Below, in pieces: positions 21,247-28,528 of a DNA stretch of 64,000 nucleotides (the first letter of the stretch is position 1; each line of letters starts with the position of its first letter). Source of the DNA: an uncultured Eubacterium sp. (lineage in GTDB: Bacteria > Bacillota > Clostridia > Oscillospirales > Acutalibacteraceae); assembly GCF_900542875.1 (NCBI RefSeq), contig NZ_UQPH01000002.1; one strand, given 5' to 3'. The translations under genes were made by a program, and so were the position numbers. The notes beneath the pieces were generated by a model that worked only from the letters and a program-made list of their open reading frames with translations, made no database searches and was not told where the DNA came from.

Positions 21247-21338
21247 GATTTAATTCGGTAACAAAAATACATCTTCTTCATAGTATGGATTGAAGTACAC
21301 CGATGGGTGGCTTACAATATTATGAAGGAGATTTTTTT

Positions 21339-22142
21339 ATGGCTGATAATCCTATTATCCAACCGGGCGTCGGCAAAATAAATGAAGCGGTTTGTATTGA
21401 CACAAAGCGAATTTATGACAGTTGCGTCAGCAAGGACTGCTTGGAAAATTTAAGAGTTACATTTTTTGCCTCCAGTCAGAGATTAATAGACGAGGCTTCG
21501 TCGGTTAAATGCAGAAGTTGCAAGATAAGCGCAGTCAGCATAGATGTTGATGAGGTACCGTTTAACAAAGGCTTTTACAGTGCCGATGTGCATTTCTACT
21601 TTATGCTTCAGTTTGACTGTTATTCGACACCGTGTACCACTCCGCAAATTGCCTGTGGATATACCGATTTTAATAAAAAGTGTATCCTCTACGGCTCAGA
21701 GGGTAATGTGAAAATTTTTACATCAAATCTTTCGGACAAAAAGACCGATTGTCCCGAAGCACCTCAGTATTCCAATCCAACCGCTAAAGTTCAGGCAGTT
21801 GACCCTGTTGTGCTTTCGTGCGATTTGGTCGATACCTGCGATTGCCCCGTTCCGCTTTGCACTGTATTTCCGCAGAGCATAATTCAAGGTTCGCAAGAGG
21901 GTGCGATTCCGCTTGCCTCCAGTCGTGCGGTTCTCGTTACTCTCGGACTCTTCTCAATTATTCAGATGGAGAGAGATGTCCAGATGACCATACCTGCATA
22001 TGATTTCTGCATTCCGGACAGAGAATGCTCATGCTCGACTCAGGATCCGTGTACCGCATTCCAGAGTATAGAGTTCCCGGTAGAACAGTTTTTCCCTCCC
22101 GAGAGAGAAAATTGCGATTGTCCGTGTAACCCAAACGCATAA
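21339..22142 (+). CDS. Cysteine-rich hypothetical protein (~11% Cys, no signal peptide, no TM helix)
   Basis: RBS GAAGGAG 8 nt before ATG 21339. About 30 Cys in 267 aa, arranged in CxxC/CxC/CxxxxC clusters. I do not recognise a family. Confidence 0.5.
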   Translation: MADNPIIQPGVGKINEAVCIDTKRIYDSCVSKDCLENLRVTFFASSQRLIDEASSVKCRSCKISAVSIDVDEVPFNKGFYSADVHFYFMLQFDCYSTPCTTPQIACGYTDFNKKCILYGSEGNVKIFTSNLSDKKTDCPEAPQYSNPTAKVQAVDPVVLSCDLVDTCDCPVPLCTVFPQSIIQGSQEGAIPLASSRAVLVTLGLFSIIQMERDVQMTIPAYDFCIPDRECSCSTQDPCTAFQSIEFPVEQFFPPERENCDCPCNPNA

Positions 22143-22149
22143 TTTTTCT

Positions 22150-22186
22150 GCCACTCCGTTTTGGATAACGGGGTGGCTTTTATTTT
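22150..22186 (+). terminator. Intrinsic terminator after the Cys-rich protein gene
   Basis: Stem gccactccg/cggggtggc followed by ttttatttt. Confidence 0.65.
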
Positions 22187-22195
22187 ACCGTAAAA

Positions 22196-22272
22196 TAAAA
22201 AGGCCTCCGAAGGGAATGCCTTTGAATGAGAAATAGTTATCTCTTTGAGAACCGCAGGAGCAAAGAGATATG
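22196..22272. repeat. Diverged copy (module A) of the rpsI terminator plus rpsI 3'-end module
   Basis: aaaaaggcctccgaagggaatgcctt...ttatctctt...gaac...gca aligns with 24222-24295 (aaaaaggcactccataaggaatgcctt...ttatctcttgctgaactgtggtgca). It is embedded in a larger imperfect hairpin 22221-22286. Confidence 0.5.
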
Positions 22273-22365
22273 TTACTCATTCAAATCATAACCACCAGTT
22301 CAACTGGCGGTTATGATTTATATTTAGAATTTAAGTATTATATCATTTGTCGGTAAATTGATGTA

Positions 22366-23778
22366 TTATAGTTTGCTGTTTTCAATAGTTGATTTGAGCT
22401 TTATTCCGTTACTGTCGATTGACCAACTATCGCCTAAATTAATAACAGAAGAATCAGCTAATTGATTTTCTTCAATAGAATAAACATTAGGAAATGCAGC
22501 CTTTACCCCGACGCAATTAACTCCGTTATTCAAATAGTAACAATTTTGCGGCTCAGGAGCATTCGAGAAGAAGTCGCATATAATTGCTCCGCTTTGATTT
22601 GTCCCGGTTATGCTGCCTGTGTTTATGCAGTTGTAAAGCGGTGCCAAATAACGACCTCCGCCTTGAATACCTCCAGCTTTGACGCCTGAAATTGAAGCGA
22701 AATTTCCGCAATCACTTAAATCATAATCTTTTACGGTATATCCTATAATGCCTCCTGTATATTCACAATTATCGGATATAATTGAACCATAATTAGCACA
22801 AGAATTTATGGATGCCGGATAACCATTTCTATAAGGTCCCGTTTGTCCAATTATACCGCCGCAGATAAAAAATTTTCCATAGCCGGCGTCATTATCTTCA
22901 TTGTCTTTTGCAATAGGACAATCTACATTTATTTGACCATAGTTGTCGCAAGAACTGATATTACCGTAGCCACATCCGAGTATTCCGCCAATTATTGAAC
23001 CATCATTGTATGCTACTTCACTTTTAACATAAATATCACCTTTATTTACTGTGTTAAATAAATCAAAAGCCGGAAAGTATTCATTAGACGAACTTTGTTG
23101 GTAAACACCCCCTATGACTCCACCTACACTATCACAGCCTTTTTCATCATAATAGATTTTTGCTTCATTTACAATATTAGACATTGTGACAGTGGCAGTT
23201 TTACATCCGGGTTCAACGACGCCTGCAATAGTACCAAATTCCGTTCCGCAGGTATGATGTATTTCGCCTTTGATTTTGATATTTGTTATTTTAGATAAAG
23301 CGCTTTCGGAATAGCTTGTTGTTATACAATTTGCCAAAACACCAACACCGTTTGTCCAAGTTCCGTCATCTCTCACATATGTTGTTTTGCTTATGTTAGC
23401 AGAAATAGTTATGTTGGATATTACGGCGTTTGTTGTTGTATCAAAAAAGCCGTTTTCAAAATGGTAGTTTTGAATTTCGTAATTGTTACCGTCAAATGTT
23501 CCTTGAAAATTTATTCCGTCCCAATCATCAATATTGCTCATATCAATATCATTCATAAGTATATATTGACCTGTACTTGAATTTCTTAGATAATCAAAAT
23601 CTTCTACGGTATATATGCCTATGTAACCCTCAGGAACGGTTTCATTGTGTAAAGTGGTTTCCTCTGTTATATTGTTATCTACATTATCTTGAATCGGTTC
23701 ACTTATATCTCCGGTGCATCCGGAAAAAGCAACGATAACAAATAATAATGATAAAAACAAATAAAAGTTTTTCTTCAT
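22366..23778 (-). CDS. GLUG-repeat lipoprotein (IgA-protease/ZmpB-type GLUG motif repeats)
   Basis: Lipobox AFSGC after the signal peptide. At least 7 Gly-rich repeats of type GG(I/V)IG spaced ~20-30 aa apart (GTIAGV, VGGVIGGV, IGGILGCG, CGGIIGQT, TGGIIGYT, AGGIQGGG, TGSITGT). Confidence 0.6.
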   Translation of the reverse strand: MKKNFYLFLSLLFVIVAFSGCTGDISEPIQDNVDNNITEETTLHNETVPEGYIGIYTVEDFDYLRNSSTGQYILMNDIDMSNIDDWDGINFQGTFDGNNYEIQNYHFENGFFDTTTNAVISNITISANISKTTYVRDDGTWTNGVGVLANCITTSYSESALSKITNIKIKGEIHHTCGTEFGTIAGVVEPGCKTATVTMSNIVNEAKIYYDEKGCDSVGGVIGGVYQQSSSNEYFPAFDLFNTVNKGDIYVKSEVAYNDGSIIGGILGCGYGNISSCDNYGQINVDCPIAKDNEDNDAGYGKFFICGGIIGQTGPYRNGYPASINSCANYGSIISDNCEYTGGIIGYTVKDYDLSDCGNFASISGVKAGGIQGGGRYLAPLYNCINTGSITGTNQSGAIICDFFSNAPEPQNCYYLNNGVNCVGVKAAFPNVYSIEENQLADSSVINLGDSWSIDSNGIKLKSTIENSKL

Positions 23779-23804
23779 TTATAATCACTCTTGAGGTGAT
23801 GGAT

Positions 23805-24017
23805 ATGTATAACCGTATTCGTGATTTACGGGAAGACCAAGACTTAAATCAAACTCAGGTAGCAAAAATGCTTGGACTGTCTCAAACTGGATATTCAAAA
23901 TATGAGACGGGTGAAAATGATATTCCGACAATTATTCTTATAAAGCTCGCAGATTTTTATGAGGTTTCTGTCGATTACCTTCTTAATCGAACCGACAATA
24001 AAAGAATGAACAAATAA
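23805..24017 (+). CDS. XRE-family helix-turn-helix transcriptional regulator (70 aa), divergent from the GLUG lipoprotein gene
   Basis: MYNRIRDLREDQDLNQTQVAKMLGLSQTGYSKYETGENDIPTIILIKLADFYEVSVDYLLNRTD is a canonical Cro/C1-type HTH. RBS GAGG lies 7 nt before ATG 23805. Confidence 0.8.
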   Translation: MYNRIRDLREDQDLNQTQVAKMLGLSQTGYSKYETGENDIPTIILIKLADFYEVSVDYLLNRTDNKRMNK

Positions 24018-24049
24018 TTAAGTTATCAGCTTTTGCTGTAATATAAAAA

Positions 24050-24078
24050 AACAACGCTTCCGTAATGAAAGCGTTGTT
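24050..24078 (+). terminator. Hairpin terminator downstream of the XRE gene
   Basis: Perfect 10-bp stem aacaacgctt/aagcgttgtt preceded by an A-run. Confidence 0.5.
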
Positions 24079-24094
24079 GAATGAAATAATGTAA

Positions 24095-24157
24095 TTATCT
24101 CTTGCTGAACTGTGGTGCACGACGGACTTCGTTGCTTCGCAACAGTCCGTGATTTTA
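24095..24157. repeat. Exact 30-nt duplicate (module B) of the rpsI 3' coding end, followed by a hairpin and U-run
   Basis: ttatctcttgctgaactgtggtgcacgacg at 24095-24124 is identical to 24266-24295, which encodes the C-terminus ...RRAPQFSKR* of rpsI on the minus strand. Hairpin acggac...gtccgt 24122-24150 and gattttat follow. Confidence 0.8.
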
Positions 24158-24221
24158 TATTATCCGTTCGCTCTGCTTTGCAAACCGCTCACGATGATAT
24201 AGTGCTGCTCGTCGTGCAAAA

Positions 24222-24256
24222 GAAAAAGGCACTCCATAAGGAATGCCTTGTATAGA
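24222..24256 (-). terminator. Intrinsic terminator of rpsI (part of module C)
   Basis: On the minus strand: aaggcattccttatggagtgcctt followed by tttttctttt. Additionally 24202-24218 (gtgctgctcgtcgtgca) is the reverse complement of the rpsI 3' end at 24284-24300. Confidence 0.7.
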
Positions 24257-24265
24257 TAATACTGA

Positions 24266-24664
24266 TTATCTCTTGCTGAACTGTGGTGCACGACGAGCAG
24301 CCTTGAGACCGTACTTCTTTCTTTCCTTCATACGAGGGTCACGAGTAAGGAATCCTGCCTTCTTGAGTGCCGGGCGAAGGTTTTCGTCATACTGGAGAAG
24401 TGCTCTTGAAAGGCCGTGACGGATAGCGCCTGCCTGACCAGATACACCGCCGCCGTTTACGCGACATACGATGTCGAACTTCTCTGTTGTTTCTGTAAGA
24501 GTGAGCGGCTGACGAACAACGAGCTTTAAGGTCTCAAGACCAAAGTAATCGTCGATGTCTCTGCCGTTGATGATGATTTTGCCTGTGCCGGCATAAACAC
24601 GAACACGAGCAACAGACTCTTTACGTCTGCCTGTTCCGTAGAAATAAGGATTTGATTCGTACAT
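24266..24664 (-). CDS. rpsI: 30S ribosomal protein S9
   Basis: Canonical S9 sequence ([22 protein letters not shown]-terminal [14 protein letters not shown]). Confidence 0.95.
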
Positions 24665-26588: not shown

Positions 26589-27848
26589 ATGTCAAAGAAT
26601 ATGATTATCGGTCAGTCCGGCGGACCGACGGCGGTTATTAATGCCAGCCTTGCGGGAGCAATAGAGTATGCGTTTAATCATACGGATATTGAAACCGTTT
26701 ACGGAATGGTGCACGGAGTTCAGGGACTGCTTGAGGATAATATTATCAATCTTACCGAGCATTTCGGCAACAGACCGTCGAGGCTTAACAGATTGCGTAT
26801 GACTCCCGCAATGTTTCTCGGTTCATGCAGATTTAAGTTGTCGAATGATGAGGAGCAGTACGAGAAAATTATCAGTGCTCTGAAGAAGTATAATATCGGC
26901 TATTTCTTTTATATCGGCGGAAACGACTCCATGGATACCGTGGAGAAACTTTCAAGATATATTGCAGAAAATAATATAGATATTAAAGTAATGGGTATTC
27001 CAAAGACAATAGATAACGACCTTATGGGAATCGACCATTCTCCCGGATTTGCCAGTGCGGCAAAATATGTTGCCCTTGCGGTAAGAAATGTAACTTATGA
27101 CACGGCTATTTACAGCATTAAATCTGTGCATATTATTGAGGCTATGGGCAGAGACGCAGGTTGGCTCGCCGCTTCGAGCGTGCTTGCACGAGACAGCAAG
27201 AATGTCGCTCCGCACCTTATCTATGTTCCCGAGGTTGCTTTTTCGGTAGACAAATTTGTCAGTGATGTTAAGGCAAAACTTGAGGAATATAACTCGGTAA
27301 TCGTTGTTGTAAGCGAGGGCATACGAGACGAAAACGGTGAGTATATTTCCGCAAGAAGCGACAAACTTGATAAGTTCGGTCACGCAATGCTCAGCGGAAC
27401 GGGTGCTTACCTTAAGGAAGTGGTAGAGGAGCAAATCGGCTGTAAAGTAAGGTCGCTCGAACTCTCCGTTCTTCAAAGAAGTGCAGGCCATACGGCTTCT
27501 CTTACCGATATTACCGAGGCTGAAAATCTCGGTATGGTTGCCGTAAAGGCGGCAGTTGCGGGAAAGAGCGGCGAATTTTCCACTCTCAGGAGAATTTCCA
27601 ATAATCCGTACTCGGTTGAATATTACACGGAGAGGGTAGGAGTTGTCGCAAATGCGGAAAAAACGATTCCTCGCAATTGGCTTAACGCAGACGGAAATGA
27701 TGTAACGCCGGAAATGGTTGAGTATCTCAAGCCGCTCGTAAGAGGAGTTCCGCAGATTCCGTATCGCAACGGTTTGCCCGATTATGTAAATGTTTCTTAT
27801 CTTGATAAAAAGAAGCAAAGGTACAACGATAATAAGGAAGAAAAGTGA
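26589..27848 (+). CDS. 6-phosphofructokinase (PFK family; length suggests the PPi-dependent or group-III type)
   Basis: GGPTAVINAS, GGNDS and PKTIDNDL motifs of the PFK family. 419 aa. Confidence 0.8.
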   Translation: MSKNMIIGQSGGPTAVINASLAGAIEYAFNHTDIETVYGMVHGVQGLLEDNIINLTEHFGNRPSRLNRLRMTPAMFLGSCRFKLSNDEEQYEKIISALKKYNIGYFFYIGGNDSMDTVEKLSRYIAENNIDIKVMGIPKTIDNDLMGIDHSPGFASAAKYVALAVRNVTYDTAIYSIKSVHIIEAMGRDAGWLAASSVLARDSKNVAPHLIYVPEVAFSVDKFVSDVKAKLEEYNSVIVVVSEGIRDENGEYISARSDKLDKFGHAMLSGTGAYLKEVVEEQIGCKVRSLELSVLQRSAGHTASLTDITEAENLGMVAVKAAVAGKSGEFSTLRRISNNPYSVEYYTERVGVVANAEKTIPRNWLNADGNDVTPEMVEYLKPLVRGVPQIPYRNGLPDYVNVSYLDKKKQRYNDNKEEK

Positions 27849-28528
27849 TGGCATATAAATTAAGAAAAGACCCTATTAATGAAATACCGAAGGCTCAATT
27901 CATATTTTGGATAATAGTCAGAATAAGTATGATTATATGCGCCGTATACAGTTTTGTAACGGGCGATGTCGTTATGGGATTTGAAAGCATATTCTGTTTT
28001 ATATTTTCTCATTTGTGGGATATGTTTCAGGTGTTCGGTCATACGAGTTTTATTATTGAGGTTCCGCCGCTTAGCCAGACTATGCTTAATGTGATTATTT
28101 TCGTAGGTATAGTGCTCGGTTCATATATGGGACTTTTTGATAAAATAAGTTGGTTTGATAATTTTATGCATATTCTGTCGGGCTTTGTGTGTGCTGTTTT
28201 CGGATATGATTTTGCTTGCATTATCCAGCGAAAAAAAGGGCAATGTGCCGCAACTCTTGCGGCATTGTTCAGCATAATGTTTGCACTGTCGATTGCCGTG
28301 GGTTGGGAATTTTATGAATTTCTTATGGATTCTTTACATGGCACAAATCTTCAACTTTCAAAATACGGAAACGAAACCGCAATGATTGACATTTCAAAAT
28401 ATCACAATGAATACGGCTATCTCGGTTTGGTTGATACCATGACCGATATGATGATGAATGCCGTCGGCGGTCTTGTGGGCATGATATTTATGATTGTGCT
28501 CAGAAACAGAAAAAAGAAGCCGAAATAA
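27845..28528 (+). CDS. Hypothetical polytopic membrane protein
   Basis: ORF with ~6 predicted TM helices. Start overlaps the pfk stop (ATGATGG). I recognise no family. Confidence 0.45.
   Translation: MMAYKLRKDPINEIPKAQFIFWIIVRISMIICAVYSFVTGDVVMGFESIFCFIFSHLWDMFQVFGHTSFIIEVPPLSQTMLNVIIFVGIVLGSYMGLFDKISWFDNFMHILSGFVCAVFGYDFACIIQRKKGQCAATLAALFSIMFALSIAVGWEFYEFLMDSLHGTNLQLSKYGNETAMIDISKYHNEYGYLGLVDTMTDMMMNAVGGLVGMIFMIVLRNRKKKPK

Follow-up and report, generated by a model that had tools for sequence, protein, structure and literature searches.

The DNA analyzed here, a 64-kb stretch from an uncultured Eubacterium sp. (contig NZ_UQPH01000002.1; hereafter, the window), carries three copies of the 3′ end of rpsI, the gene encoding ribosomal protein S9, and two of them enclose a small cassette of two genes. 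The first-pass annotation of the window, made from the sequence alone, had taken this arrangement for the footprint of site-specific integration at rpsI, and our results support this view. With a probability of roughly 65%, we interpret the region 22196–24265 as the variable part of a hot spot for site-specific integration, filled by an accreted stack of remnants that lack an integrase and resemble cis-mobilizable elements (CIMEs). The evidence observed directly comprises the repeats of the gene end, empty sites and polymorphism among strains of the same species, integrases of other species located at the same core, and intermediates of decay.

Repeated rpsI ends and strain-variable arrays

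The rpsI gene itself (24266–24664, minus strand) is intact: its open reading frame (ORF) encodes 132 aa ending in ...QFSKR* and matches Pfam family Ribosomal_S9 (PF00380, E 4e-51), and an identical copy of the S9 protein was found in 1673 collection blocks. The true 3′ end of the gene, copy C (24265–24295, minus strand), is the current attachment site, and copy B (24094–24124, minus strand) is a displaced pseudo 3′ end of rpsI that forms the proximal boundary of the gene cassette. Together they constitute an exact direct repeat, which turned out to be 31 nt long rather than 30 nt as originally reported. No further matches to it with up to three mismatches were found in the 64 kb, the number expected from 100 shuffles being 0. 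The minimal core of copy C is formed by the last 16 nt of rpsI, GTTCAGCAAGAGATAA, and in other species this core lies at the border of integrase elements.

The third, diverged copy that had been noted together with a terminator hairpin is real. Its 16-nt core at 22237–22252 reads GTTCTCAAAGAGATAA on the rpsI strand (reverse complement in the window); it is identical to the window's own rpsI end at 13 out of 16 positions, and to the rpsI end of sister strains with the TCA serine codon at all 16. The same layout had been claimed for every copy, and it does hold for copies A and B, which have 'tgaatga..aata' in common, but not for copy C, where the leader differs. Elsewhere in the 64-kb window, no components of the modules were detected; tRNA genes were not found in the window either. 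As read directly from the sequence, the core is a small dyad, GTTCTC AAA GAGATAA. Small dyads are the usual form of recombinase core sites.

Terminator hairpins of three types, denoted T1, T2, and T3, accompany these gene ends. According to the terminator scan, the current rpsI terminator (24226–24249, minus strand) is of type T3, which is also located directly 3′ of rpsI in two strains with an empty site (L006, L009), and the hairpin following copy B (24050–24078, minus strand) is of type T1, found directly 3′ of rpsI in L001, L002, and L007. The hairpin at 22200–22222 (minus strand, repeat family D1), beside the distal flank, belongs to the same type as the current terminator (74% identity over 31 nt), and in empty-site strains this type stands directly after rpsI and before the same flank; this hairpin is the displaced ancestral rpsI terminator. 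The distal flank of the variable region is fixed by the terminator (22150–22177, plus strand) of a convergent gene encoding a protein of 267/279 aa, this terminator being kept in all conspecific loci. The convergent gene (21303–22142) is likewise present in all of them, and its cysteine-rich product has no Pfam match even at E ≤ 1.

The conspecific loci are human-gut metagenome contigs found via the exact S9 protein and the downstream 267-aa protein. Since their flanks are 97.4–98.7% identical to the window, we assign these contigs to the same species; contig L139 is identical to the window, and the nearest named genomes are the uncultured Ruminococcaceae metagenome-assembled genome UMGS98 (91%) and Eubacterium coprostanoligenes ATCC 51222 (80%). 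Across the conspecific strains, the interval between the rpsI stop codon and the fixed flank ranges from 42 to 2328 nt. The 22.2–24.2 kb segment is missing in seven out of the first ten loci, and the empty site sought among close relatives is present in three strains (L006, L009, L170), with rpsI followed by one terminator and then by the flank.

At least nine architectures are made from the same few modules, whose order varies by strain, and each array unit is closed by an rpsI-end copy. Read outward from rpsI, they are, in addition to the terminator alone at the empty sites, T1-Ra (L002), T2-Mb (L004, L165), T3-M171-T2-Ra (L005, L161), T2-Mb-T1-Ra (L008), T3-M171-T1-Mb (L010), T1-XRE-lipoprotein-Ra (L001), T3-M171-T1-XRE-lipoprotein-Ra (the window, L003), and T1-Mb-T3-M171-T1-XRE-lipoprotein-Ra (L007), where M171 and Mb are modules of 171 nt and about 100 nt, respectively, and the XRE-family regulator and the lipoprotein are encoded by the gene cassette. 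M171 and Mb are found in both orders (L010, L007), and each array is compatible with the newest unit being nearest to rpsI. The true rpsI end switches between the serine codons AGC and TCA with no change in the protein, and this alternation is expected if incoming DNA replaces the end of the gene.

Integrases at the same core and comparison with known elements

The rpsI end is kept at the nucleotide level in more than 120 species of Clostridia, and an occupant that does encode an integrase, which had been proposed as a check of the integration reading, was found in related Clostridia, where it sits at the same core, but was not found in this species. In eight viral contigs from IMG/VR, the rpsI end lies at the very edge, in most cases with a terminator and arm-type repeats behind it. 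Direct reading revealed a tyrosine integrase in two of the eight contigs, and BLASTP identified it in seven. Integrases of this family (PF00589, phrog_1) are encoded 150–900 bp behind the core and stand directly behind rpsI in six species representatives (L121, L084, L050, L031, L044, L058), one of them from the Acutalibacteraceae; in addition, a complete temperate phage with an integrase at the rpsI site was found in 82 collection blocks. The family comprises 1916 homologues at E < 1e-40; of the IMG/VR contigs with its relatives, most are cut off at the integrase, and the rpsI junction was seen in only one. Stages of decay among the occupants of the site are represented by a 4.6-kb element with an integrase (L121), a 3.6-kb element with a split integrase (L058), and 2.7 kb of cargo without an integrase, with the core and the terminator on the flanks (L077), and in all three, as in copy A, GTTC marks the start of the identity to rpsI.

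Two features of the prophages were observed in passing. The junction arms in L131–L138 (e.g., L134:1915–2130) contain arm-type repeats in triplicate, such as GGTAACTAACAGGTAACACACAGGTAACTAACAC, together with paired palindromes such as GTCTTGTGCAAGAC, all of them upstream of a small Arc-like gene and of the integrase. Two variants of the temperate phage integrated at rpsI (L182:1–2766, L184:1–2766) carry genes with Pfam matches to Csf1 and Csf3, associated with type IV CRISPR (clustered regularly interspaced short palindromic repeats).

Under the integration reading, the attachment site would be the last 16–21 nt of rpsI, and elements with a tyrosine integrase would bring their own rpsI end and terminator, so that S9 would stay intact and the old end would be pushed outward. 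The occupants of the site in this lineage would have lost the integrase and most of the cargo, the remnants being, outward from rpsI, M171, the 2-kb regulator/lipoprotein cassette inside an internally deleted Mb, and the original terminator. Arrival of the newest unit beside rpsI would then result in module orders that differ between strains. Such remnants would retain both junction sites and could move only via an integrase supplied in trans or via homologous recombination between strains.

The 3′ end of the rpsI gene is known as a site for integrative mobilizable elements, integrative and conjugative elements (ICEs), as well as prophages in streptococci, IMESag-rpsI being one example (PMC5090054, PMC5357655, PMC7487436). 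The system described here shares with them the target gene and its 3′ end, the direct gene-end repeat with an intact gene, the presence of more than one element type, and, in related Clostridia, a tyrosine integrase at the site. At the same time, the host is a gut Clostridium from the [Eubacterium] coprostanoligenes group, its occupants are devoid of integrase, relaxase, and replication genes, and the integrases in relatives of this host belong to prophages.

CIMEs and their accretion have also been described (PMC5704250). Features shared with CIMEs are the retention of both junction sites, the loss of genes for recombination and transfer, and the tandem stacking of the units at one attachment site; in particular, nothing but the XRE and lipoprotein genes lies between copies B and A. 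However, the described CIMEs are kilobases long and have been traced to a known parent ICE, whereas two of the units found here are only 95–171 nt long, have no parent that we could find, and are conserved across species with a defined fold. A further parallel is provided by the tandem ssrA-specific genomic islands with ssrA-end repeats in Dehalococcoides (PMC3146451): downstream of a single essential gene there are several islands, each with a gene-end repeat of ~20 nt as its boundary, their number and content vary by strain, and some have no integration module. In contrast to the rpsI site, with its far smaller units and a site family of tyrosine recombinases, those islands are on the 10-kb scale, rely on a serine recombinase, and contain many genes. 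The phenomenon as such, that is, rpsI-targeting elements and CIMEs, is known; what is new is the group of hosts, the connection with a family of prophage integrases, and the extreme miniaturization and conservation of two modules.

Several observations weigh against the integration reading. Flanking direct repeats with an intact target gene and an unoccupied site in related strains characterize a site-specific element at the rpsI 3′ end and were both found, but an integrase beside the junction was not: as the first-pass annotation had stated, the att-like repeats have no accompanying integrase gene, and we detected none in the 64-kb window and none up to 10 kb from rpsI in 14 conspecific loci. 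Nor did we find an integrase-bearing element sharing the arm sequences of these modules. As no integrase-bearing element was found in this species, we infer, rather than observe, the origin of its modules by integrase-mediated insertion. Recombination at the core may still occur, and the reshuffling of modules could proceed via ordinary homologous recombination through shared segments of 16–75 nt. Further, other species have the regulator/lipoprotein pair at unrelated loci, with no repeats around it there, and the pair may have reached the module by another route. Every architecture comes from short-read metagenome assemblies; on the other hand, some architectures are repeated in independent samples (L005 and L161, L004 and L165, the window and L003), which argues against assembly artefacts. 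Finally, Mb and M171 are too conserved, and Mb is too clearly structured, for neutral scars, and these mini-modules may be more than scars.

The mini-modules and alternative explanations

Copy A (22237–22285, minus strand) comprises the 16-nt pseudo rpsI end and the 5′ part of Mb, the latter matching Mb of L152. In sister strains and in other species, the sequence upstream of the distal core runs on into the complete Mb, of which the window keeps only the 5′ part, GAATGAGTAACATATCTCTTTGCTCCTGCGGTTC, fused directly to TCAAAGAGATAA; the same fusion is seen in copy A of L001, with the junction offset by one nucleotide. Given this fusion of the 5′ part to the core, and given that the covariance model of Mb (R1) matches the window at 22237–22266 via its two ends only, copy A is an Mb module whose internal part was lost between two short repeats, GTTCCTC and GTTCTC. 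Both cassette genes sit inside this deleted Mb, between its terminator and its 5′ part.

In about ten lineages of Clostridia, Mb is found directly after the rpsI terminator (loci L113, L036, L096, L068, L124, and L148–L160; e.g., L113:1836–1936), and nowhere else in the DNA examined. It is present in E. coprostanoligenes ATCC 51222, and two copies stand in tandem in L156. A CTGTGGG motif lies 92 nt upstream of the core in Mb and 101 nt upstream of it in two real junctions, but as a link between Mb and the arms of real junctions this motif is no more than a lead, since it is limited to three out of six junctions; the viral scan for an Mb-type arm with the core returned nothing.

M171 (24095–24265, minus strand) consists of a terminator, an inverted rpsI segment, two hairpins, and a 30-nt pseudo rpsI end, that is, copy B. 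It is also present, at varying array positions, in L003, L005, L007, L010, and L161, as well as in the E. coprostanoligenes-like contig L150. No ORFs with a family match were found in M171. The inverted segment, located just past the terminator (24204–24218), is an inverted copy of rpsI coding nucleotides 24287–24301 (15/15 complementary, I13) and closes a long stem in the predicted M171 fold. Species-specific counterparts of this segment were identified in L094, L016, and L042; as a general trait of Clostridia, an inverted rpsI copy past the terminator was rejected, since among 124 loci examined it is restricted to a few module-bearing lineages.

It is possible, though in our opinion rather unlikely, that the mini-modules are not remnants of mobile DNA but functional structured elements residing in the rpsI 3′ region, either an extended RNA of the 3′ untranslated region or a folded-DNA site, which are kept by selection and whose copy number and order shift via homologous recombination or unequal crossing-over. 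The exclusive position of Mb behind the rpsI terminator conforms to this explanation, and so do the folds predicted for both modules, which are far more stable than those of shuffled sequences (z = −6.4 for Mb, with closing stems and a three-way junction, and z = −7.6 for M171). In hairpin 1 of Mb, 98–100% of cells are paired, four out of five pairs have changed on both sides, and the covariation score was reached by 0 out of 500 shuffles; the closing stems, however, are paired in only 64–83% of cells. The G–U pairs in Mb favor the rpsI-sense strand, and its 5′ part tracks the synonymous proline codon of the host (CTGTGG, CTGCGG, and CTGAGG opposite CCA, CCG, and CCT, respectively). In L121 and L160, Mb is situated on the host side of integrated elements. 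The body of M171 is 93% identical between the window species and L150, compared with 86.8% for the rplM–rpsI coding sequence; between species, M171 is thus better conserved than the ribosomal genes next to it.

Nevertheless, both modules are dispensable, as empty-site strains exist. Moreover, Mb invariably has a pseudo rpsI end of the TCA-AAG version, regardless of the host codons, and the same version is observed at the junctions of real elements, which points to an element origin. A full-length Mb RNA is unlikely because Mb holds an internal two-way terminator, and the Rfam search of the window region and of an array-rich locus yielded only matches at the chance level. The first-pass remark that the modules might have been recruited as structured RNA elements has some backing for Mb in compensatory base changes across species, but M171 shows no covariation, the apparent compensatory pair in L150 being unpaired in the consensus fold.

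Tentatively, and with low confidence, we also suggest that Mb and M171 might be new miniature non-autonomous structured attachment-site cassettes, inserted at the rpsI stop codon by rpsI-specific prophage integrases supplied in trans and piling up in an integron-like manner, or else that Mb might be an undescribed structured RNA of the rpsI 3′ region, whose 5′ arm would co-evolve with a synonymous site in the S9 gene.

In integrons, cassettes are stacked at one site, the integrase is IntI, the sites are palindromic, with attC boxes RYYYAAC ... GTTRRRY, and their structure is kept more than the sequence; arrays without an adjacent integrase occur as well. We regard as improbable that the rpsI site holds a genuine array of this kind, with modules ending in a hairpin-forming recombination site and a recombinase from elsewhere inserting small circles at the rpsI end. 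The stacked arrays, newest unit nearest to rpsI and order permuted between strains, would fit this explanation; Mb and copy A are indeed imperfectly palindromic, with arms that repeat the core in inverted and direct orientation, TATCTCTTTG ... CAAAGAGATA, and, as in attC, structure is kept while sequence varies. Yet the core GTTCTCA deviates from the attC consensus GTTRRRY, no integron integrase was found nearby in the window or the conspecific loci, and the arrays are very short, with four units at most; the gene cassette has its own promoter and operator in sister strains, and the tyrosine integrases found here belong to the ordinary phage type, with arm-type repeats.

That the rpsI end and terminator were simply duplicated in tandem by slippage or unequal crossing-over, without any mobile DNA, is disfavored and, in our view, very improbable. 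Such a duplication would explain why the repeats are direct and close together (171 nt) and why the terminators resemble one another; but the sequences between the repeats are unrelated to each other and to rpsI, the cargo is AT-rich, the pseudo ends carry a different serine codon, a three-nucleotide change, the same modules are found in other species, and real integrase elements use the same core. A dispersed repeat family of the REP (repetitive extragenic palindromic) type, unrelated to rpsI, is refuted for the DNA examined, as no support for it was found, the 64-kb window has no further copies of the components, the cores in the 20-kb conspecific loci are confined to the position behind rpsI, and all Mb matches adjoin rpsI.

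The regulator/lipoprotein cassette and the wider role of the site

As the first-pass annotation had it, the interval between copies A and B holds only a lipoprotein gene and a divergent XRE regulator gene, as confirmed by the ORFs and Pfam. The cassette is AT-richer than its surroundings, with a GC fraction of 0.31–0.39 vs. 0.42–0.50 in the flanks. The regulator (23805–24017, plus strand; 70 aa) is an XRE-family helix-turn-helix protein with a match to HTH_3 (PF01381, E 5e-16) and to transcriptional regulators in PHROG. The lipoprotein (22366–23778, minus strand; 470 aa) has a signal peptide ending in FSGC and is GLUG/IgA1-protease-like. Its description as a GLUG-repeat protein needs qualification: there is no direct match to Pfam GLUG (PF07581) even at E ≤ 1, but remote homologues with 28–30% identity do carry this domain, and the AlphaFold2 model (mean confidence, pLDDT, 85.6) is a parallel β-helix. 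According to Foldseek, the model is similar to 3n6z, a 'putative IgA1 protease' from Bacteroides (E 1e-5), and to the β-helix part of streptococcal IgA1 proteases (6xja, 7uvk). Thus the predicted fold resembles the N-terminal β-helix region of IgA1 proteases; no protease domain was detected in the lipoprotein.

The distal end of the cassette is marked by an 18-bp hairpin (22283–22319; I5, 94% complementary), which is kept in L001, L003, and L007. In sister strains (L001:10689–10783), the space between the two genes holds a TTGACT-17-TATACT promoter with a perfect 17-bp inverted repeat around it, and this inverted repeat is probably the operator of the XRE regulator. In the window strain, both the promoter and the inverted repeat have been removed by a 67-bp deletion, which lies between two GTGATTATAAAT repeats; its junction (23777–23788), seen in the alignment with L001 and L003 and as a break in BLAST, is restricted to this strain. 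In L007 (11123–12556), the lipoprotein gene is split into ORFs of 140 and 330 aa and probably is a pseudogene. Since the promoter is deleted in one strain and the lipoprotein gene is split in another, we conclude that the cassette is decaying. BLAST of the 2.15-kb region against phage and plasmid collections gave no phage match and one chance plasmid match of 38 nt.

In other species, the divergent pair of an XRE gene and a β-helix lipoprotein gene was seen as a two-gene unit at unrelated chromosomal sites, namely, in L141:7646–9452, L144:7131–9467, and L147:7697–9185. Apart from the rpsI site, a second strain-variable spot was noted at approximately 27839–27850 of the window, where some strains have an additional gene for a 163-aa PNPOx-family protein between the DUF2238 and phosphofructokinase genes (e.g., L001:6311–6818, L008:6311–6802), this gene being absent from the window.

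Taken together, these data indicate that the rpsI 3′ end is a busy, strain-variable integration site in abundant human-gut Clostridia too, served by a very large family of prophage integrases. Practical uses of the site could include strain typing and the recognition of prophage boundaries in gut metagenomes. Modules of 95–171 nt that are conserved between species, one of them with covariation in its favor, raise the question whether remnants of attachment sites can persist as self-standing miniature elements or can be recruited as structured RNA or DNA.

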